Source of the DNA: an uncultured Methanospirillum sp.
GTDB lineage: Archaea; Halobacteriota; Methanomicrobia; Methanomicrobiales; Methanospirillaceae
NCBI GenBank assembly: GCA_964637135.1
Contig: CAZWTX010000005.1
Span: 62,001-124,087, forward strand
Direction of reading: 5' to 3'
DNA length: 62,087 nucleotides
This document shows positions 48,560-61,116 of this stretch, piece after piece. Below the pieces are notes generated by a model. It ran no database searches, was not told where the DNA came from, and worked only from the letters and a program-made list of their open reading frames with translations. How positions within the stretch are numbered: position 1 is the stretch's first letter; each line of letters starts with the position of its first letter. The translations under genes were made by a program, and so were the position numbers.

Positions 48560-49720
48560 ATGGACTCTTTAGAGAGTCATATGATATCGGAGCAGTGTCT
48601 GCAGTACCAGATCCGGATACAGGATCTCGAATCACAGAACCTTGAGCTCTCGATTCGTGCAGAAGAACTGATAAAAGAAAATACCGTTCTCAAACGGGAG
48701 AATAATCAGCTGAAGCGAATGCCGCTCTTTGTCGCTTCAGTGGTGGATGTCTTCTCCAATGGCGAAATTTACCTCCGCCAGATGGGGAACAACCAGGAGT
48801 ACATCACAATTATCGCAGATGAACTGCGTCCGCTCATCAAGGCAGGCTCAAAAGTTGCCGTAAACAATGCCCTCTCCGTGGTTAAGGTTCTTGAAGAGAC
48901 ATATGATACCCGGGTGAGAGTGATGGAGCTGGAAGAGTCACCGGAAGTCACCTTTGAACATATCGGGGGTCTTTCCAACGAAATCGAGGAAGTTCGCGAG
49001 GCAGTCGAGTACCCCCTCACCAGACCTGAGGTATTCGAACGGATCGGCGTCGAACCTCCCAAAGGGATTCTTCTCTTTGGTCCGCCGGGTACTGGAAAAA
49101 CCCTCATCGCGAAGGCAGTCGCGCATAATGCAAAAGCAACATTCATCAGGATGAGCGGGAGTGAACTGGTCCACAAATACATCGGAGAAGGGGCACAGAT
49201 GGTCAGGGAACTCTTCACCCTTGCACGGGACCGGGCTCCTTCCATTGTCTTCATCGACGAGATCGACGCCATCGGATCGACCCGGACAAATGACGGAACC
49301 TCAGGCAGTGCCGAAGTACAGCGAACCCTGATGCAACTCCTGGCCGAGATGGACGGGTTTGACAACCGGGGAGATGTCAGGATCATGGCTGCAACAAACC
49401 GGGTTGACATGCTTGATGCCGCCCTGCTCAGGCCCGGACGGTTTGACCGGGTCATTGAGATACCGCTCCCTGACGAATCTTCACGGCTTGAAATCCTGAA
49501 GATCCATACCAGGCGGATGTCACTTGATGAAGTCAACCTTGATACACTGAAAGACCAGACCGCAGAACTGACTGGCGCCCAAATCCAGGCGGTCTGCAGA
49601 GAAGCAGGTATGTTTGCGGTCAGGAAGAATGCATTCCATGTTGCGATGAACGACTTTACCGACGCCATCGCCAAGATCCGGCGTGCGGGTCCGGAATCTG
49701 AAGAGAGGATGTTCCTGTAA
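48560..49720 (+). CDS. pan: Proteasome-activating nucleotidase (copy 1)
   Basis: N-terminal coiled coil, [26 protein letters not shown]-terminus MFL. Confidence 0.92.
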   Translation: MDSLESHMISEQCLQYQIRIQDLESQNLELSIRAEELIKENTVLKRENNQLKRMPLFVASVVDVFSNGEIYLRQMGNNQEYITIIADELRPLIKAGSKVAVNNALSVVKVLEETYDTRVRVMELEESPEVTFEHIGGLSNEIEEVREAVEYPLTRPEVFERIGVEPPKGILLFGPPGTGKTLIAKAVAHNAKATFIRMSGSELVHKYIGEGAQMVRELFTLARDRAPSIVFIDEIDAIGSTRTNDGTSGSAEVQRTLMQLLAEMDGFDNRGDVRIMAATNRVDMLDAALLRPGRFDRVIEIPLPDESSRLEILKIHTRRMSLDEVNLDTLKDQTAELTGAQIQAVCREAGMFAVRKNAFHVAMNDFTDAIAKIRRAGPESEERMFL

Positions 49721-51191: not shown

Positions 51192-52430
51192 TCATGCAAA
51201 CATCTCTGATGCCGTGGTAAGACGGTGATCCCGCTCGAAATCTAGACGGAATTTATCAAGGGCCATCATGAAATCCGCGTGGCTGATCTTGGGATGCTCC
51301 TGTCTGATTGCAAACATACCGGCTTCCATGCATATTGCATTGAGATCAGCCCCGTTTCTTCCTTCTGTCAGCCGGGCCACCTCCATCATGTCAGCATCAT
51401 CGGCAAGATTCATTCCGCGGGTATGCACCTTCAGAATAGCATAACGCCCTTCAGTATCCGGCAGGGGTATCTCGATGATGCGATCAAACCGGCCTGGCCT
51501 GAGCAGGGCAGCATCAAGAATATCAATCCGGTTGGTGGCTCCGATGATCTTGACATCACCACGCTGTTCAAATCCATCCATCGCAGCAAGCAGCTGCATC
51601 AATGTCCGTTGCACCTCGCGATCGCCGGATGTCATGGCCTCGGTTCGTGATGCACCAATTGCATCGATCTCGTCGATAAAAACAATGGATGGTGCCTTGT
51701 CTTTCGCCAGGTCGAACAGTTCACGCACCAGCCGGGCTCCCTCACCGATGTATTTCTGGACGAGTTCTGATCCGACCGTGTGAAGGAAACAGGCATGGGT
51801 TTCATGTGCAACCGCCTTTGCGAGGAGGGTCTTCCCGGTACCGGGCGGACCAAAGAGGAGAACACCTTTTGGCGGACTGATCCCGATATTCTCGAAGAGT
51901 TCGGGTCGTGTCATCGGGAGTTCTACAGCCTCCCTGATCTCGAGGATCTGCTTCTCAAGTCCGCCAATATCTTCGTAGGTCTCGGTTGGGAGTTCTTCAA
52001 CCTCCATGCCGTATACCTGGGAGTCGTAACTGCTCGGGAGAACCTCAACAATGGCAAGTGACTGTTGGTTGAGGGTACATCTGACACCTGCCTTGATCTG
52101 GTCAGGATTGACTGACTGGGAGACCCGTACGAGGAACCGGGGTCCGGCACTTGATCTCACGACTACCCGGCTCGTATCAATGATGTCAGTGATGGTTCCG
52201 ACAATCAACGGAGGGGTCTTCAGATGTTCGATCTCACTCTTCAGCTTCCTGACTTCCCGCTCGTATCGGATCTTCTGGGTTTCAATATATCGCTTGTCAG
52301 ATTCCAGTTGCCGTATCTGCTCTTTTAATTCCTGATTCTGGGACTCCATCCCGGACACCCGTTCTATCAGGTACCGGTAGAGTTCTTCAGGCGTTTTCGG
52401 GTCCTCTGGCTGTCGCACTGTATCTGACAT
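51192..52430 (-). CDS. pan: Proteasome-activating nucleotidase (copy 2, more canonical)
   Basis: Coiled coil, [38 protein letters not shown]-terminus MFA. Confidence 0.95.
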
Positions 52431-52479
52431 CGGTCAATTAGTTATATAGGGGTAAGTGACTATATGATGATTGCGAAAA

Positions 52480-52980
52480 ATGCAATGTGAAATGTGTGGG
52501 GCCGATATTAAAGGGCCTGTCAGACGTATCCGTACAGAAGGCACCGAGTTATCTGTCTGTAATAATTGTGTTAAATTCGGTGTTGAAATTCATGCTGCAC
52601 CAAAGACGCCATCAGGCGCAGCAGGCAGAATATCTCCATCCCATGCATCGGCAGTTCCCCCGGCAAGAAAACCAAGGGATTTCTTTGACCAGATGGGTGG
52701 TGAACTCGCTGAAGATTATGCAGAGCGGATCCGGACAGCCAGGATGAAACTCGGGATGACCCAGAAGGATCTCGCACTGGCAATGATGGAAAAAGAACTC
52801 CTCATAAAAAAACTGGAAAAAGGAGAACTGATTCCTGAAGATGATGTCCGGAAAAAACTTGAAAAAGCACTCAGTATATCCCTGCTGGAGAGTACTGACA
52901 TGGACGTTCAGGATCTCCATCACACCCGTCTGACCACGACGATGGGCGATGTGATCAAGATCAAGAAGGCAAAGAAGTAA
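52480..52980 (+). CDS. Archaeal multiprotein bridging factor 1 (Zn ribbon + HTH)
   Basis: MQCEMCG...VCNNCVKFG, IRTARMKLGMTQKDLA, TMGDVIKIK; divergent from pan as is typical. Confidence 0.93.
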   Translation: MQCEMCGADIKGPVRRIRTEGTELSVCNNCVKFGVEIHAAPKTPSGAAGRISPSHASAVPPARKPRDFFDQMGGELAEDYAERIRTARMKLGMTQKDLALAMMEKELLIKKLEKGELIPEDDVRKKLEKALSISLLESTDMDVQDLHHTRLTTTMGDVIKIKKAKK

Positions 52981-53060
52981 TCTTTTTTTCTGCGTGAGCA
53001 GAGATTGATTTATAAAGGGATAAAGAATGCCATGCCATATCATGGCACGGGAACATAACC

Positions 53061-53069
53061 CTTATATTA
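53061..53069 (+). promoter_or_regulatory. Candidate TATA box of the aromatic operon leader
   Basis: CTTATATTA about 24 nt upstream of the leader ATG at 53091, consistent with a nearly leaderless transcript; a second TTTATAAA lies at 53009-53016. Confidence 0.5.
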
Positions 53070-53090: not shown

Positions 53091-53282
53091 ATGAATATCT
53101 CCCGGATTAACCGGCCTGCGGGTATGCCTGCATGGAGCGGAGCGGACGGGTGTCATTCAGTACCAGGGGATTTGCCCATGCAGAAGACGGACCATAGTCT
53201 GTTGGGGATTAATCCGGATATTTCTGTACGGTTTTTCTTTTTCCTGTTTTTCTTTTCGTATTTTACGTATTTCTGGTGCTAA
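53091..53282 (+). CDS. Putative aromatic-amino-acid leader peptide (63 aa; 34 aa if started at 53178)
   Basis: Ends VRFFFFLFFFSYFTYFWC-stop, 35 nt before the first aromatic biosynthesis gene. Confidence 0.7.
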   Translation: MNISRINRPAGMPAWSGADGCHSVPGDLPMQKTDHSLLGINPDISVRFFFFLFFFSYFTYFWC

Positions 53283-53315
53283 TCGGATCATCCGACACCA
53301 GATTGGAGTGATCTG
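53272..53315 (+). promoter_or_regulatory. Alternative hairpins (SD sequestrator vs anti-sequestrator)
   Basis: TCTGGTG(53272-78)/CACCAGA(53296-302) with inner TCGGA/TCCGA competes with CGGATCATCCGA(53284-95)/TTGGAGTGATCTG(53303-15), which covers the SD GGAGTGA. Confidence 0.6.
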
Positions 53316-53317
53316 TT

Positions 53318-54118
53318 ATGAGAGGTAAAGATATCAGACTTGAAAGAATCATGAACCGGAACACGAAAAAGACCATCATCGTCCCGATGGATCACGGCGT
53401 CAGCTCAGGACCTATCGACGGCCTGATCAACATGGGGGAAGCCGTGAATGCGGTGGCTGAAGGGGGAGCAAATGCCGTGATCGGTCATGTCGGACTTGCC
53501 CTGCACGGGCACCGGCAACAGGGCCACGATATCGGACTAATCCTGCACCTTTCGGCATCAACTGCCATCAGTCCCGATCCAAACGAGAAGGTCCTCGTGA
53601 ATACAGTCACCAATGCAATTAAAATGGGGGCCGATGCCATCTCCATGCATGTAAATATCGGGGCGGATTCCGAGGCACAGATGCTTTCAGATCTCGGCAG
53701 GGTTGCCATCGAGTGCATGGAATGGGGGATGCCGCTCCTCGCAATGATGTACCCGAGAGGGAGAAAAATCACCGATGAACATGACGTCGATCAGGTAAAA
53801 CTTGCCGCACGGGTTGCTGCTGAACTCGGGGCAGATCTCGTGAAGACAAATTACACCGGGGACCCGGACTCGTTCAGGATTGTTACGAAGGGATGTCCGG
53901 TTCCGGTGGTGGTAGCGGGGGGTTCCAAGACCGATGATCTGACCACCCTGACCCTTATCGAAGGAGCAATGGAGGGCGGTGCAGCCGGAATATCCATCGG
54001 ACGCAATGCCTTCCAGCATCCGAACCCTGCTGCATTCGTGCGTGCATGTGCCAGGATCATCCATGAAGGGATGACCGCAGAAGAATCAGTTGAGATACTC
54101 AGGAGTGAAGGATTATGA
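53318..54118 (+). CDS. 2-amino-3,7-dideoxy-D-threo-hept-6-ulosonate (ADH) synthase / DhnA-type class I aldolase, copy 1
   Basis: [40 protein letters not shown]. Confidence 0.9.
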
Positions 54119-54891
54119 TCGGAAAAGAGATTCGGATTGAGCGGATTATGGACCGGAACACCGGCAAGACGGTGATTATTCCCATGGACCACGGGATGAC
54201 CCTTGGTCAGATAGACGGATTGCTGAACATGAACGAGACGATCTCCGATGTATCAGACGGGGGAGCAAATGCCATCATCCTCCACAAGGGTCTGGTAAAA
54301 CGCGGACACCGGCGAAAAGGGCGTGATATCGGATTGATAATTCACCTTTCTACCGGAACAAGCATGAATCCGGATCCCAACGACAAGGTACTTACCTGTA
54401 CGGTCGAGGAAGCAATATCCCTCGGTGCCGACGCGGTATCCATTCACATCAACCTCGGGGCAGCACAGGAGTCACGGATGCTTGAATCAGCTGGAAGGGT
54501 TGTTCATGACTGTAACCGGTGGGGAATTCCGCTCCTGGCAATGGTTTACCCGCGGGGCAACGGGATAAATCCGACCGATCCGAGGCATGTTGGTCATGCG
54601 GTCAGGGTAGCCGAGGAACTTGGGGCAGATCTCGTGAAGACGAATTACACCGGGGATCCCGAATCGTTCAGGAAGATCGTTCAGGCATCTTCGATTCCGG
54701 TTCTGATCGCCGGAGGAGAGAAGGCCGGGGATCTCGAAACCCTTCAGACCATTCGAGATGCTGCCCACGTATCCTTGTGCTCGGGCGTATGTATGGGAAG
54801 AAATGCCTTCCAGCGGAACGATGTTGCAGCCTTCGTATCAAAGGTCTGCAGGGTCGTTCATGAAGGAACCGATCCGGAGTCGCTTGCATGA
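54115..54891 (+). CDS. ADH synthase / DhnA-type class I aldolase, copy 2
   Basis: [40 protein letters not shown]. Confidence 0.9.
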
Positions 54892-55874
54892 AAAAACTCT
54901 TTGTGGATGCACGACCATGGGACAAGGAACTCGTGGTAACCGCCCTTGAATCAGGGGCAGACGGAGTATTCGTAGAATCCGCAGAACCGGTGAGTGATCT
55001 CGGGAAGATCCTGACCATTGCTCCGGACGGGGATCTCATCCCCGGAACAGATATCCACGAGATAACCATCTCGTCAACAGAGGAGCAGGAAATTGCGATG
55101 GAACTCGCAAAAAGAGGTGCCATCATCGTTCATACCCCTGACTGGACGATCATCCCGCTTGAAAACCTCGTAGCCGTCGGAAGAGAAGTCATTGCATCGG
55201 TAACAACCCGTGAAGAGGCAGTAACAGCACTCACCATTCTTGAGCACGGGGTATCCGGCGTTCTCGTGAAAACGAGTGATCCGGATGTTATCCGGGATAT
55301 TGCCAGCCTTATCCAGCAGGAGACCTGCCGGATCCCTCTTGTTCCGCTGACAGTCCGTTCTGTTCAGCCTGCCGGGATGGGAGACCGGGTCTGCGTTGAT
55401 ACCTGCACGATGATGCAGGATGGCGATGGGATGCTCGTTGGAAACACCTCATCCGGGCTTGTCCTGGTCCATGCAGAGACCCTCGACAACCCGTATGTCG
55501 CATCCCGTCCCTTCAGGGTGAATGCCGGGGCTGTTCATTCATATCTCCAGGTTCCTGACGGAAAAACAGCATACCTGGCAGACATCAGGACCGGGAACAA
55601 GACCCTCATCATCCATGCTGACGGATCCTGCCGGATCAGCACGGTCGGACGGGTGAAGATAGAACGGCGACCCCTCCTCCTTGTTGAAGCGGAATACCAG
55701 GGCAGGCAGGTCTCGGCAATCCTTCAGAATGCCGAGACAATACGGGTGGCCCAGCCGGGAGGAGGAGCACTCCCGGTAACGAAACTCTCCCCGGGAGACA
55801 CCATTCTCGGGCTTGTCATGGAGGGTGGCCGGCATTTCGGAATGGCAGTCAGGGAGACCATTCTCGAGAAATGA
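54888..55874 (+). CDS. 3-dehydroquinate synthase II (archaeal type)
   Basis: DWTIIPLENL, GDRVCVD, RPFRVNAGAVHSY, GRVKIERRPL, LQNAETIR, RHFGMAVRETILEK. Confidence 0.95.
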   Translation: MKKLFVDARPWDKELVVTALESGADGVFVESAEPVSDLGKILTIAPDGDLIPGTDIHEITISSTEEQEIAMELAKRGAIIVHTPDWTIIPLENLVAVGREVIASVTTREEAVTALTILEHGVSGVLVKTSDPDVIRDIASLIQQETCRIPLVPLTVRSVQPAGMGDRVCVDTCTMMQDGDGMLVGNTSSGLVLVHAETLDNPYVASRPFRVNAGAVHSYLQVPDGKTAYLADIRTGNKTLIIHADGSCRISTVGRVKIERRPLLLVEAEYQGRQVSAILQNAETIRVAQPGGGALPVTKLSPGDTILGLVMEGGRHFGMAVRETILEK

Positions 55875-56698
55875 TGATAGCAGGAATTATCGGGGGAACC
55901 GGCGGGATGGGCAGTTTTTTCGCCGATGTATTTAAAAAAGCAGGGTGGGAGGTACTCATCTCCGGAAGAAAAACAGAACTGACCACCGAAGATCTGGTTT
56001 CGCAGGCAGATCTTGTTATGATCTCGGTCCCGATCCGTGAGACCGTCCGGGTAATCGAATCGGTTATTCCGTACCTCCGCAGAGATCAGATCCTCACTGA
56101 TCTCACATCCATGAAGATAGAACCGGTCAGAGCGATGCTTCAATCGCCTGCCGAGGTCATTGGTCTTCACCCCATGTTCGGTCCGTCGGTATCCTCCCTT
56201 GCCGGGCAGACAATTGTTGCCACACCGGTCAGGGCGAAACCGGAGACATTCACCCGGATAATGAATGTGTTTGAACACCAGGGGGCCAGGATTACCGTAT
56301 CAACACCGGAAGAACATGACCGGATGATGGCAGTAATCCAGGGGCTGACACATTTCAAGGCCATCGTTCTTGCAGGGGCGATGAGACGGCTCGGTGTTTC
56401 TCCGGCAGAAACCGAACCGTTCATGAGTCCGGTGTACCGGATAGAGACGGGTATTGCCGGAAGACTGCTGGCACAAAGCCCTGAACTCTATGCAGATATC
56501 CTGACTAATAACCCGGAAGTCCCGAAAACACTCAGAACATGTATTCAGGCAGCAGAAGAACTCCTTTCCATCATTGAGACGAAGAACGTTCCAGGATTTG
56601 AACATGAATTCCTTCTGAACCGGGAATGGTTCGGTGATTATTGCAGGCGATCCCTTGATGAGACAAACCATATCATCGATCGGATGGTGAAGGAGTGA
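55871..56698 (+). CDS. tyrA: Prephenate dehydrogenase
   Basis: GIIGGTGGMG, DLTSMK, HPMFGP, EEHDRMMAVIQGLTH. Confidence 0.93.
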   Translation: MMIAGIIGGTGGMGSFFADVFKKAGWEVLISGRKTELTTEDLVSQADLVMISVPIRETVRVIESVIPYLRRDQILTDLTSMKIEPVRAMLQSPAEVIGLHPMFGPSVSSLAGQTIVATPVRAKPETFTRIMNVFEHQGARITVSTPEEHDRMMAVIQGLTHFKAIVLAGAMRRLGVSPAETEPFMSPVYRIETGIAGRLLAQSPELYADILTNNPEVPKTLRTCIQAAEELLSIIETKNVPGFEHEFLLNREWFGDYCRRSLDETNHIIDRMVKE

Positions 56699-57489
56699 CC
56701 CTGATCACCCTTGGTCCCGAAGGGACGTTTTCCCATATCCTCGCAGAAATGATCGATGAGGAAGTCATTCTCGTTCCGACCATCGGACAGGTATTCAGGG
56801 AAGTTGTGAATACCGGAATCCCCGGGCTCGTTCCCCTAGAGAACATCGAAGCCGGAAGCGTTGCAGCAACCCTTGACGGTTTGCTTCAGTATGAGGTCTC
56901 AATCACCCGTGATGCATACCTGCCGGTTCATCATACTCTGGCCTCAGAGGGTCAGTTCAACGAGATCAGGGTAATCTATGCCCATCCACAGAGCCATGAA
57001 CAATGCAGCAGGAAGATAGAGGAACTCGGGATACCGGTTATTCACACCGTGAGTAATGCGGCGAGTGCGGCTGAAGCAGCAAAAAACCCGGATTCAGGCG
57101 CAATCATTTCATCACTGCTTGCCGAAAAGTACCATCTCACCGTTCATGAGGACCGGATCGAGAATAATCCTGCCAACCAGACACGGTTCATCATCATTGA
57201 AAAAGAGCCGGCAGTCATGGATAATCCGCAAAAATGCAGTCTCATTGTCGATCCCGGGGAGAATCGTGCAGGCCTTCTTTACGATCTTCTCCTTCCCTTC
57301 AAGGAAGGAAATGTCAACCTGGCGAGAATTGAATCACGACCCTCAAAACGAAGCATGGGTAGTTACATATTTTTCCTTGACCTGAACTGTGCCGGGGAAT
57401 GGACCCGGGCAATAGATCAACTCTCACAGCTGACCACGGTCAGGCACCTCGGATGTTACCGGACCTGGGAAGGTGAGAGATGGAAGTAA
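56695..57489 (+). CDS. pheA: Prephenate dehydratase (with ACT domain, no chorismate mutase domain)
   Basis: LGPEGTFS, VPLEN, HPQ...QC, NQTRF, NLARIESRPS. Confidence 0.94.
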   Translation: MTLITLGPEGTFSHILAEMIDEEVILVPTIGQVFREVVNTGIPGLVPLENIEAGSVAATLDGLLQYEVSITRDAYLPVHHTLASEGQFNEIRVIYAHPQSHEQCSRKIEELGIPVIHTVSNAASAAEAAKNPDSGAIISSLLAEKYHLTVHEDRIENNPANQTRFIIIEKEPAVMDNPQKCSLIVDPGENRAGLLYDLLLPFKEGNVNLARIESRPSKRSMGSYIFFLDLNCAGEWTRAIDQLSQLTTVRHLGCYRTWEGERWK

Positions 57490-58754
57490 CCATGGGTAAG
57501 TGCCGGCCGGTCCGGGGGACCATCCGGGCTCCCCCTTCAAAAAGTTACACCCACCGGGCACTCATTCTTGCCGGCCTTGCAGACGGACCTTCATGCATCA
57601 CCGGTCAGCTTGATGCAGATGATACCCGGATGACGGCACGTGCGCTCATGTCACTCGGGGTCAGGATCGACTGGTCGCAGGATACTATAATGGTTCATGG
57701 CAGGGGGAACCATCTCACCAGTCCTGCATCAGCGATTGATACCGGTGATTCCGGAACGACAATGCGGCTGATGACTGCGGTATCACTCCTCGCCGATCAA
57801 CCGGTTATTCTGACCGGGAGTTCCCGGATGAAAGAGCGTCCGATTGGGACACTGGTAAATGCGCTGAACCAGTCCGGTGCAGAGATAACGTTTCTGGAAA
57901 ATGAGGGATTCCCGCCGATCCGGATCTCTGGACACCTTACTGGAGGCGTGATCACCATCGACGGAAGTATCTCAAGCCAGTTCATATCCTCACTTCTCAT
58001 CGCTTCTCCGTATGCCAGCAATGATACTGAGATTCGAATCACCGGTAACCCGGTCTCCACCCCATACATCTGCCTGACACTCCGGATGATGGAAGTGTTC
58101 GGGGTTGGGGTCAGGAATGATTCGGATACCCGGTTCCTGATCAGTGCAGGACAGCATTACCAGCCGGTATCATACCGGGTTGAAGGAGATTATTCTTCGG
58201 TATCCTACTGGCTGGCTCTTGCTGCCGTTACCGGGGGATCAATCCGGGTGACCGGCCTGAATCAGGATTCCCTCCAGGGAGATCGCCGGATCCTCGACAT
58301 CCTTGTCGCCATGGGCTGCCATGCTGACTGGGACGGGGAGGATCTCCTCTTCTCAGGGGGAAACCTGACCGGGATCGAGGTTTCCATGGATGATTGTCCG
58401 GATATCATCCAGACCATCAGTATCGTTGCCGCCTGTGCAACCGGCCCGTCCACGATTCGCGGGATCCACCATCTTCGATCAAAAGAGAGTGACCGGGTTG
58501 AAGCGATCCGAAAAGGTCTATCTGATCTCGGGGGTGAAGTTATGGTATCTCAGGACTGGCTGACCGTTCAACCACGACCACTTCACGGAGGGGTGATCCA
58601 TGCCCGGAACGATCACCGGACTGCCATGAGTTTCGCAATACTCGGCTGTGCCATCGGTGGTGTTACGATCCTTGATGCCGGATGTGTATCCAAATCATAC
58701 CCTGAATTCTGGAAGGAGCTGAACAAGATATGGCAGACCGCCGAATCGTGCTGA
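57480..58754 (+). CDS. aroA: 3-phosphoshikimate 1-carboxyvinyltransferase (EPSP synthase)
   Basis: PPSKSYTHRA, SGTTMR, SSQFISSLL, KESDR, DHRTAMS, KSYPEF. Confidence 0.96.
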   Translation: MEVTMGKCRPVRGTIRAPPSKSYTHRALILAGLADGPSCITGQLDADDTRMTARALMSLGVRIDWSQDTIMVHGRGNHLTSPASAIDTGDSGTTMRLMTAVSLLADQPVILTGSSRMKERPIGTLVNALNQSGAEITFLENEGFPPIRISGHLTGGVITIDGSISSQFISSLLIASPYASNDTEIRITGNPVSTPYICLTLRMMEVFGVGVRNDSDTRFLISAGQHYQPVSYRVEGDYSSVSYWLALAAVTGGSIRVTGLNQDSLQGDRRILDILVAMGCHADWDGEDLLFSGGNLTGIEVSMDDCPDIIQTISIVAACATGPSTIRGIHHLRSKESDRVEAIRKGLSDLGGEVMVSQDWLTVQPRPLHGGVIHARNDHRTAMSFAILGCAIGGVTILDAGCVSKSYPEFWKELNKIWQTAESC

Positions 58755-60112
58755 TCGGGTACCGGGGGACCGGAAAAACCACCTTGTCAGCTCTCCTCCA
58801 GGAGCGGCTTGGCAGAACTGGTACAGATACCGATCACCTCATAGAAGAGAAAGCAGGGCGGGCCATTGCAGATATTTTTTCAGAATATGGTGAGCAGCGG
58901 TTCAGGGAGATGGAGGAAGAGGTCATCAGAACCCTTCCCGGAGATATGATGATTATCAGCACGGGAGGCGGGGCAGTACTGAACCCGGTAAATGTCGCTT
59001 CCCTGAGAAGAGACAGCCTGATGATCTACCTCGATGCTGATCCAGGGGTCATTGCGGAGAGAATTTCCGGATCAGGCAGACCATCCCTGACCGGCAGACC
59101 TCCCGAAGAGGAAGTGAGATCAGTCCTTGCAGACCGCCTTTCGGCATACCGGAGTGCTGCTGATGTGAGGGTAGACACTTCCGCAGCCTCCCCGGATGAG
59201 AGCGTCATAGAGATCATGGCGTACCTCACCCATGGCCCTGGGAAGGCAGATGCACGATCTGATCTCATATCAGCCGTACAAAATACCCAAATACCCCAAA
59301 CCGAACAGCAGATCCTTGATATAATAAAGGCCCGGAATGATATCATCCTGTACGGTATTCTGGGAAACCCATGCATGCACAGCCTTTCCCCACGAATCTG
59401 GAATCGTCTCTTCCATGAATACCGGATGCCTGCTCATTACACCTGGTTTGAAATGCCTGATCCGGGTGTTTTTCTGGAACGCGCCTCTGATGCAGGAATA
59501 CGCGGACTTTCCGTGACCATCCCCCATAAGGAGACAATCATACCATATTTATCTGAAGTCAGGCATGATGCATCAACGATCGGGGCAGTAAACACGGTAC
59601 TCATCCAGGACGGGAAAACATTCGGGTACAATACCGACTGGAAGGGGGTATACCGGCCACTCGAAGGTGCCGGAGGAGAGAAGGCGGTAATTATCGGGGC
59701 AGGAGGGGGTGCAGCCGCTGCAGCATATGCACTGGACATGCGGGGATATTCGACGTACATCCTGAACCGGACGGTGGAACGGGCAGAGAACCTTGCTGCA
59801 CGATTTGGTGCTGAAGCCGGTCCGGTATCGCTTGTTGAATCACTCCGTCCCGATCTGATCGTCAATACGACACCGATCGGCATGGGAAATGACTCGAGGA
59901 TTCCCGTACCGCTTTCAGTCCTGAAACCAGGAGTCAGGGTCTTTGATTTCGTATACACCCCGGCAGATACTCCCCTCCTCAGGGCAGCCCTTGAGCGGGG
60001 ATGTTTCGTTATCCCGGGTACCGAGATGTTCATCCACCAGCTTGCTGAACAGTTTAAAATCCTCACTGGGATCGAGGTTCCGACCAACCATATCAGGGAA
60101 ATGATGTCATGA
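58730..60112 (+). CDS. Bifunctional shikimate kinase (bacterial AroK type) - shikimate dehydrogenase (AroE) fusion
   Basis: N-part LIGYRGTGKTT, FREME, STGGG, GRPSL; C-part GNPCMHSLSP, SVTIPHKE, GAVNT, YNTDW, GAGG, NRT, NTTPIGM. Confidence 0.93.
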   Translation: MADRRIVLIGYRGTGKTTLSALLQERLGRTGTDTDHLIEEKAGRAIADIFSEYGEQRFREMEEEVIRTLPGDMMIISTGGGAVLNPVNVASLRRDSLMIYLDADPGVIAERISGSGRPSLTGRPPEEEVRSVLADRLSAYRSAADVRVDTSAASPDESVIEIMAYLTHGPGKADARSDLISAVQNTQIPQTEQQILDIIKARNDIILYGILGNPCMHSLSPRIWNRLFHEYRMPAHYTWFEMPDPGVFLERASDAGIRGLSVTIPHKETIIPYLSEVRHDASTIGAVNTVLIQDGKTFGYNTDWKGVYRPLEGAGGEKAVIIGAGGGAAAAAYALDMRGYSTYILNRTVERAENLAARFGAEAGPVSLVESLRPDLIVNTTPIGMGNDSRIPVPLSVLKPGVRVFDFVYTPADTPLLRAALERGCFVIPGTEMFIHQLAEQFKILTGIEVPTNHIREMMS

Positions 60113-61116
60113 ACACCTTCGGTTCACGATTCAGGATCACCACCTTTGGTGAAAGCCATGGTAAGGCAATTGGAGTGGTCATCGACGGATGCCCTGCCGG
60201 CATACCCCTTACTCCTGCAGATATCCAGCCGTTCCTGGATCGACGCCGACCGGGTTCATCAGACCTGGTAACCCCGCGTAAGGAAGCAGACCGGGTAGAG
60301 ATTATGAGCGGAGTTTTTGAGGATACCACCATCGGAACTCCGGTTGCCCTGCTGATAGCAAATACCTCGATGCAATCAGGTGATTACGAGGCATTCAGAT
60401 CTGTTTTCCGCCCTGGACATGCTGATTTCACGTACCAGGCAAGATACGGAATCCGTGACCACCGTGGAGGTGGACGCAGTTCAGGACGTGAGACTGCTGC
60501 CCGGGTCGCGGCAGGAGCCGTTGCCATATCATGTCTCAACCGGCGGGGTATTACTCTGTCCGGCAGGATTACAGAGATCCATGGCATCCGGGAACCCGCC
60601 CGGTATGAAGATGAGATACGCCAGGCAATCGCAGACGGGGACTCGGTCGGGGGTATTATTGAGATCAGGATCGCCGGATGTCCGCCGGGAATCGGGGATC
60701 CGGTCTTTGGAAAACTCGATGCCCTGTTTGCGTATGCCATGATGAGTGTCGGGGGAGTAAAAGGGATCGGGATCGGAAGCGGGTTTGATGCAGCACGGAT
60801 GCGGGGATCAGAACACAACGATCCCATTCTCCCGGACGGTTTCGGATCAAACCATGCAGGGGGGATTCTCGGGGGGATATCCACGGGCCAGGATATCATC
60901 ATAACCCTTGCTGTAAAACCCACGCCATCTATCAGAAAAGAACAGCAGACCATTGACCGGGCAAAAAACCCGGTGACAATATCGGTGAACGGACGGCACG
61001 ATCCCTGCATCGCCCTGAGAATCGTCCCGGTTGCCGAAGCAATGGCAGCCCTCGTCCTCATGGACGCCATCATGCAGTACGATGCAGACATCCCCTGGAG
61101 AGAGGAAGGAACCTGA
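60109..61116 (+). CDS. aroC: Chorismate synthase
   Basis: TTFGESHG, RPGHAD, GGGRSSGRET, NHAGGILGGIS, GRHDPC. Confidence 0.97.
   Translation: MNTFGSRFRITTFGESHGKAIGVVIDGCPAGIPLTPADIQPFLDRRRPGSSDLVTPRKEADRVEIMSGVFEDTTIGTPVALLIANTSMQSGDYEAFRSVFRPGHADFTYQARYGIRDHRGGGRSSGRETAARVAAGAVAISCLNRRGITLSGRITEIHGIREPARYEDEIRQAIADGDSVGGIIEIRIAGCPPGIGDPVFGKLDALFAYAMMSVGGVKGIGIGSGFDAARMRGSEHNDPILPDGFGSNHAGGILGGISTGQDIIITLAVKPTPSIRKEQQTIDRAKNPVTISVNGRHDPCIALRIVPVAEAMAALVLMDAIMQYDADIPWREEGT

Follow-up and report, generated by a model that had tools for sequence, protein, structure and literature searches.

A predicted ribosome-sensed translational attenuator in the leader of an aromatic amino acid operon of Methanospirillum

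The aromatic amino acid operon of an uncultured Methanospirillum sp. is headed by an open reading frame (ORF) that ends in a run of phenylalanine and tyrosine codons, and this is followed by two alternative RNA hairpins, one of which buries the Shine–Dalgarno (SD) sequence of the first biosynthetic gene, aroA'. Both pairings are real and under selection. As a class, the element is probably a ribosome-sensed translational attenuator; the specific form that masked-ribosome folding points to, and which we favour with less assurance, is a switch set by ribosome position whose polarity is such that a stall at codons −12 to −6, counted from the leader stop, would be the ON state. The window referred to below is the whole stretch of DNA analysed, 62,087 nucleotides of contig CAZWTX010000005.1, and its genome is denoted G000.

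The leader and the operon that it precedes

The 5' boundary of the locus is marked by an aMBF1 gene (52471–52980, plus strand, as are all features of the leader and operon given here; NCBIfam TIGR00270, above cut-off), directly 3' of which lies a run of seven T (52983–52989), from its sequence the likely aMBF1 terminator. A TGCGTG motif after this T-run (52990–52998) is repeated in most loci of the genus and, further upstream, two proteasome-ATPase-like genes, judged from their translations only, lie close together on opposite strands (48560–49720 and 51192–52430). A TATA-like box at 53062–53069 places the predicted transcription start at or beside the leader ATG. Just 5' of this promoter, and outside the switch, is a palindrome (53033–53047, no strand assigned) found as a relaxed pattern in 17 of 22 genus loci and as a strict pattern three times in G000; as a putative transcription-factor site, it could possibly supply a second control layer. 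Similar palindromes sit between TATA and ATG in the genera g19, g12 and g14.

The first regulated gene, aroA' (53318–54118, with its ATG at 53318), encodes ADH synthase and scores above the cut-off of TIGR01949. The rest of the overlapping operon (54115–61116) holds, in order, a second aroA', aroB' (DHQ synthase II), tyrA-like and pheA-like genes, aroA (EPSP synthase), an aroK–aroE fusion and aroC; in the NCBIfam profile search the tyrA, pheA and kinase assignments fell below the curated cut-offs, with E-values of 2e-63, 9e-54 and 1e-40, respectively. The switch occupies the 35 nt separating the leader ORF stop from aroA'. Rfam at its gathering threshold gave nothing at the leader, its sole match in the whole window being one tRNA, and the NCBIfam profile search gave no match for the leader ORF.

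The leader ORF (53091–53282) comprises 63 codons and a TAA, and its last 16 codons (53232–53279), the presumptive sensor, include 12 aromatic ones: nine Phe, two Tyr and one Trp. This run was the top-scoring amino-acid-rich leader among the seven matches of a scan of G000, and it contains five runs of 4 to 5 U. For comparison within the genus (g1), 25 genomes were used, of which 23 gave the region 5' of the first aroA' (L001–L022 and L031, with L022 ending at a contig edge), one gave no full match, and one (L058, genome G011) had neither the leader nor the first gene. In L058 both appear to have been lost, and promoter and palindrome stand directly before the second paralogue, which is apparently leaderless.

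Across 22 genus loci the leader has 47, 60, 62 or 63 codons, its length changing by whole codons only, and the other two reading frames are closed in all 22. With the leader ATG chosen as one in frame with the aromatic run, the TATA-like box starts 29 nt before it in 21 of the 22 loci and 31 nt before it in the other; because this distance is fixed across the genus, the leader is probably translated from the very 5' end of the transcript, i.e. leaderless. A later start, ATG 53178, was set aside as it lacks the TATA spacing kept genus-wide. The N-terminal two thirds of the leader are poorly conserved in the genus. In its aromatic run, codon −4 is Phe or Tyr and codon −2 is Trp in 22/22 loci, codon −3 is Phe in 21/22, codons −6, −7 and −9 are aromatic in 21 to 22, and codon −5, the predicted switch point, is non-aromatic in 21; Phe and Tyr swap for each other inside the run, which ends 32 to 37 nt 5' of the aroA' ATG in all 23 genus regions. 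The RNA data for one genus member (L008) consist of assembled contigs from 8 of 21 runs, and have no bearing on transcription start, level or termination; three of eight contigs (X10, X14 and X12) reach the leader with the promoter uncovered, their ends differing (2405, 2337 and 2445), and of the other five, three run through and two are probably DNA.

Two alternative folds and the position of the ribosome

An earlier note, made by inspection of the window's letters, had proposed two mutually exclusive hairpins that control access to the aroA' SD, and the base pairs that it drew are all there. In structure A (53272–53302), TCTGGTG (53272–53278) is the exact reverse complement of CACCAGA (53296–53302), and an inner stem of TCGGA with TCCGA (53283–53287 with 53291–53295) closes a 3-nt loop, so that the anti-SD strand is held within A. 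In structure B (53284–53315), the anti-SD at 53284–53295 pairs with 53303–53315 through 12 pairs, two of them G–U and with G53308 bulged, burying the SD. The SD itself, GGAGTGA at 53305–53311, extends to 53313, and its duplex with a general archaeal 16S 3' end has an energy of −12.5 kcal/mol. Two of the claims hold in part. It is the inner stem of A that excludes B, whereas the outer 7-bp helix shares no nucleotide with B; the 3' arm of A is the loop of B, and outer A plus B has the topology of a pseudoknot. Similarly, the SD is free in A in the local fold, but longer naked RNA is predicted to pair the U-rich Phe codons over the SD and start region (53245–53266 with 53308–53333).

Structure A is the minimum-energy fold of 53272–53320 at about −15 kcal/mol (−15.0 to −15.2), and B, at about −12.2 to −12.8 kcal/mol, replaces it as the best fold when a mask over the 5' end reaches at least 53276; with A slightly the more stable on these calculations, B may not persist after ribosome release. 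When the 22 nt separating the stop codon from the SD were permuted, 3 of 10,000 shuffles of the window matched the stability of A, 217 that of B and none both, and in each of the remaining 22 genus loci both folds turned up in at most one of 1,500 shuffles.

The stems were also followed through the genus, where they proved conserved and covarying, so that the refutation which the earlier note had offered failed. With the last codons free, A folds in 23/23 genus regions, one of which (L012) folds as B in longer context, and B, which begins 2 to 6 nt 3' of the leader stop, folds after the stop in 23/23. In a sequence-only alignment of 22 genus loci and L023 (21 distinct rows, in which the window's own row is out of register and its compensatory pair left uncounted), 87.8% of the cells of A are paired and 22 cells changed on both sides, against 90.4% and 11 cells for B; none of 500 shuffles reached any of these values, and slid-partner controls gave at most 54% paired for A and 46% for B. 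Other scores separate less sharply, the overall covariation score of B being equalled by 21/500 shuffles and the pairs-with-change figure by 34/500 for A and 28/500 for B. All of these values are to be read with the caveats that the structures were named from the same sequences and that related loci are not independent, the gene tree used for counting independent changes being too weak for this, with support for 5 of its 22 branches. On inspection by eye, both folds are preserved through four separate remodellings, namely in the window (A–U to G–C in the outer helix plus a new inner register), in the L013 group of seven loci (three inner pairs and the SD pairing), in L020, where a single anti-SD base is altered together with its A partner and its SD partner, and in L031. 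The switch segment shows 79% pairwise identity, compared to 35% at four-fold sites of aroA'.

To model ribosome position, the RNA was masked up to a point 8 or 11 nt beyond the A site, the 11-nt mask being based on the 27-nt ribosome footprint reported for H. volcanii (PMC7261190), and the cost of opening positions −14 to +3 of aroA' was computed. For the window the predicted cost is 9.5 kcal/mol in naked RNA, about 5 kcal/mol with the ribosome at codons −12 to −6, 8 to 9 at −5 to −2 and about 6 kcal/mol at the stop. Codon −3 costs more than codon −7 in 22/22 genus loci with either mask, and naked RNA is costlier than −7 in 18 to 19 of these loci, with genus medians of 6.7 (naked) vs 4.8 kcal/mol (open), a contrast of only about 2. 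Both masks reach the anti-SD only from codon −1 or 0. The suggestion that a ribosome in the Phe run leaves the switch open is supported by masked folding; naked RNA is predicted to be closed by a third pairing, the U-rich run over the SD, so that a stall would be needed to open it. The question of Tyr and Trp stalls, which the earlier note had left aside, receives a predicted answer: the upstream Tyr codon (−7) would be ON, a ribosome halted on the final Tyr, Phe or Trp codon would be OFF, with Trp stalls non-inducing, and a ribosome at the stop would partly melt B and give partial opening.

The mechanism that we favour would therefore run as follows, and remains a model at each of its steps. 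Shortage of Phe or Tyr would stall the ribosome 6 to 12 codons before the stop, where it would hide the U-rich strand and spare A, so that the ribosome-binding site of aroA' would stay accessible; a ribosome moving through the last codons would let B form and close the site, and B would presumably keep passing and terminating ribosomes from leaking initiation. That the downstream genes make Phe and Tyr is a point in favour of sensing these two amino acids. Control at translation, and not at a terminator, is consistent with a two-state fold tied to the leader end and with the region after B, which offers no terminator U-tract: from the leader stop through the first 15 aroA' codons of the window there is no run of three or more T. 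Some effect on the transcript may nonetheless follow, as aroA' left unloaded might secondarily end transcription by polarity, and loss of transcription through FttA would be plausible (PMC11616081). What sits badly with the simple model is the retention of aromatic codons at −4 to −1, in the closed zone.

Tryptophan would presumably be sensed elsewhere, at a separate mini-ORF of trpE. In 28 of the best 30 loci (L283–L310), a conserved mini-ORF reading M–P–(V/L)–(E/D)–W has an SD of its own and runs across the trpE start in the −1 frame, as at L297:3008–2991 on the minus strand of contig C4 in G000. The overlapped trpE codon is ATG in 20 loci and CTG in eight, and the mini-ORF stop often overlaps a second ATG or GTG; L287 has no standard trpE start within 40 codons. 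This mini-ORF is a candidate Trp sensor and may explain why the aro leader needs no response to Trp. The trpE promoter is also overlapped by TGTACA-like boxes, which we take to be TrpY sites. By eye, no leader was found in G000 before three leuA-like genes, one separately placed ilvB or hisG.

Frameshift-type leaders in the Methanomicrobiales

Beyond the genus, 136 upstream regions of aroA' from the Methanomicrobiales were collected by protein match and not by motif (56 from a first set and 80 chosen for genus spread, with three second-paralogue matches and L022 left out). Thirty-two have an in-frame leader, with a median of 10 aromatic codons in the last 16, five are unclassified, and 99, from 28 genera, are of a frameshift type, recognised at the peptide level by xF....xY in a short frame-0 ORF that opens with a 5' ATG. 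In these 99 loci, which fall within L024–L056 and L181–L260, two tandem sites, YUU-UUY and YUU-UAY, precede an aromatic run that lies in the +1 frame. Counted from site 1, the +1 frame has no stop for 34 to 81 codons, and in 99/99 frame 0 is closed, its stop, for which all three stop codons occur, following 1 to 2 codons after the Tyr in 84. The codon before Phe at site 1 is TTT in 84 loci and CTT in 15, never TTC, and that before Tyr at site 2 is TTT in 55, CTT in 42 and CGT in two. Judged on codon identity, this pattern has what ribosomes would need to slip by +1 at a hungry Phe or Tyr codon, and the placing of the aromatic run behind the slip sites suggests starvation-gated frameshifting.

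Programmed +1 frameshifting in prfB, the gene for RF2, relies on CUU or UUU in the P site with a U next to it, on an A-site codon that is decoded slowly and on an SD-like stretch upstream. The 99 relatives share with it a P-site codon able to re-pair at +1 and a presumably slow A site, may share the SD-like stretch, and differ in that the A-site codon is a Phe or Tyr sense codon, that there are two tandem sites and that the product is a leader peptide; the arrangement is absent from the window's genus. The upstream stretch is ambiguous, since GGTGR stands 4 nt 5' of site 1 in 69/99 loci and the same letters give a GTG or ATG in the +1 frame in 99/99. The main rival explanation of these relatives is that ribosomes may start at this +1-frame GTG or ATG, three codons before site 1, instead of slipping; the regulation would then have the wrong sign, as frame-0 stalls would block it. 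The relatives cannot be accounted for by ribosomes that re-initiate after the frame-0 stop, as a start in the +1 frame lies nearby in about 21/99 only, and slippage of RNA polymerase is unlikely where the run has only four T, as in the CTT variants. By eye, the cassette can also fold a small hairpin around its U-run.

The cassette was absent from the window leader, whose run is in frame with its ATG, and from the scan of G000. A scan for the cassette motif in named genomes, about half of the collection, gave at least 120 loci, of which at least 79 adjoin aroA', four of these 79 having a short, cut or fused +1 frame; leader motif matches include records of Methanoculleus, Methanoregula, Methanolinea and Methanocalculus. 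In L159 the +1 frame runs without a stop from the cassette into aroA' and the aromatic run is missing, which may be an assembly error or a direct frameshift fusion. L069 and L093 are bacteria-labelled records that carry the archaeal leader and aroA', and are probably misbinned contigs. Outside the order, 20 loci, from 20 of 85 matching genomes and some perhaps not heading an operon, had no aromatic leader (0/20).

Some in-frame leaders look as if derived from the frameshift type. Those of L239 (g30) and L250 (g31) resemble 1-nt deletions exactly at the slip sites with the frame-0 start kept, and L245 and L248 also resemble hard-wired frameshifts; for g30 and g31 an origin by 1-nt deletion fits the sequences, with the reservation that U-runs are indel hot spots and single genomes are error-prone. 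The A-type fold is found in 19/22 genus loci, 3/11 other in-frame loci and 6/88 frameshift-type loci. As 8 of the 11 in-frame leaders outside the genus are without it, A is not required for an in-frame leader, and the idea that every in-frame leader gains the A fold was rejected. A joint reading, which seems to us evenly poised between belief and doubt, would be that leaderless ORFs of 14–22 codons carry tandem slip sites that send starved ribosomes into a +1 run whose translation opens the aroA' SD hairpin, that the shift was hard-wired in several lineages through the loss of 1 nt, and that the window's genus then evolved the A/B switch, because every ribosome now reaches the run, restoring discrimination.

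Alternative readings and known systems

The same sensor might work with another geometry, in which a ribosome that lingers at the last codon or at the stop would melt the foot of B and allow coupled initiation, with A reduced to a refolding aid or a setter of basal level. The conserved aromatic codons at −4 to −1 and the predicted drop in opening cost at −1 and 0 agree with such near-stop geometry, as do the 30 sampled frameshift-type loci, most of which have one SD hairpin, predicted to stay shut until the ribosome is at the last codons, close to the stop (median 8.7 falling to 5.4–5.8), and the genera g19, g30 and g31, whose in-frame leaders have one hairpin. We nevertheless consider it rather unlikely, as stalls at −4 to −2 do not extend to B under the 8- or 11-nt mask, every ribosome gets to the stop when amino acids are plentiful, and there is covariation in the inner stem of A, which would be superfluous in a mere by-product. 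A pseudoknot, with the outer helix of A and B combined as the resting OFF state and full A only transient, is suggested by two helices that share no nucleotide and stand in H-type order in all six loci drawn; the connecting loops would be 0 nt at full length, the inner A stem that excludes B is conserved with compensation, and upstream stalls would have nothing to act upon, all of which make it highly improbable.

Control might instead be transcriptional, the U-rich Phe codons loading the termination factor FttA (aCPSF1) and ribosome position together with the hairpins deciding termination. The five runs of 4 to 5 U, the bias of the genus runs to TTT (109 vs 23 TTC) against a TTC share of 58% of Phe codons in long frames of G000, and the preference of FttA for U-rich RNA 30 to 36 nt from the 3' end (PMC11616081) fit this proposal, but U-richness is also explained by pairing over the SD, B pairs specifically and covaries with the SD, and an early stall would expose the remaining U-run and favour termination in starvation, which is the wrong sign; we regard it as distinctly improbable. 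Scarcely credible, in our estimate, is a small hydrophobic peptide acting in trans, with the hairpins only fixing the level of translation: the aromatic C-terminus is indeed hydrophobic and 47 to 63 codons are long for an attenuator, yet conservation is poor over the N-terminal two thirds, Phe and Tyr replace each other along the run, both alternative folds have been kept side by side and, in most of the order, frame 0 offers no route into the run. A DNA operator fails to explain the fixed frame-0 stop of the relatives and was set aside.

In the enterobacterial leaders pheL–pheA and trpL, cognate codons and alternative hairpins are combined such that ribosome position chooses between the folds and a stall turns expression on. 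The window shares with them the codon run, the overlapping hairpins and, by prediction, the stall as ON state, and differs in having no hairpin-plus-U-tract terminator after B, in that the SD is the switched element, in its archaeal promoter and in an ORF 3 to 4 times longer; pheL is mentioned in passing in PMC5009743. Another parallel is the mycobacterial poly-Cys leader Ms5788A described by Canestrari et al. (bioRxiv 10.1101/834739), which resembles the window in its short ORF with a cognate codon run heading a biosynthetic operon, leaderless there and predicted to be so here, and in an SD-sequestering duplex giving translational and not terminator control. As described there, the stalled ribosome directly blocks the sequestering structure; in the window a ribosome stalled in the run does not cover the anti-SD, which starts after the stop and is held by the competing fold A. 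The mycobacterial case is also bacterial, specific for Cys and shown by mutation, that of the window archaeal, specific for Phe/Tyr and predicted. For ermCL/ermC, a review describes leader translation that likewise unfolds an SD-burying structure and, with ketolides, a frameshift by which ribosomes enter the spacer (PMC5009743), much as we propose for the relatives of the frameshift type; in that account the signal is an antibiotic and not a shortage of aminoacyl-tRNA, and conserved tandem slip sites do not feature, while the window leader needs no shift.

According to a 2021 paper, archaea had no known mechanism of transcription attenuation or antitermination (PMC8448881), and according to the 2016 review no starvation-specific example of regulatory hungry-codon frameshifting was known (PMC5009743). 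Upstream ORFs are noted, with no mechanism given, in three further papers (PMC1854888, PMC11456600 and PMC10117724). An archaeal leader-peptide attenuator, a form of control in the bacterial style, was not found in the literature surveyed, which lay mostly outside the subscription journals; the M. mazei list of 5'UTR ORFs may be relevant here.

The 60-nt element allows archaeal ribosomes to be tested as sensors of amino acids, with the natural compensatory alleles as a guide to mutations, and the wider family adds candidate regulatory hungry-codon frameshifting together with natural transitions between the two designs. Should the joint reading be true, the Methanomicrobiales would show that attenuation by way of the ribosome occurs in Archaea and that frameshifting on starvation can serve regulation.
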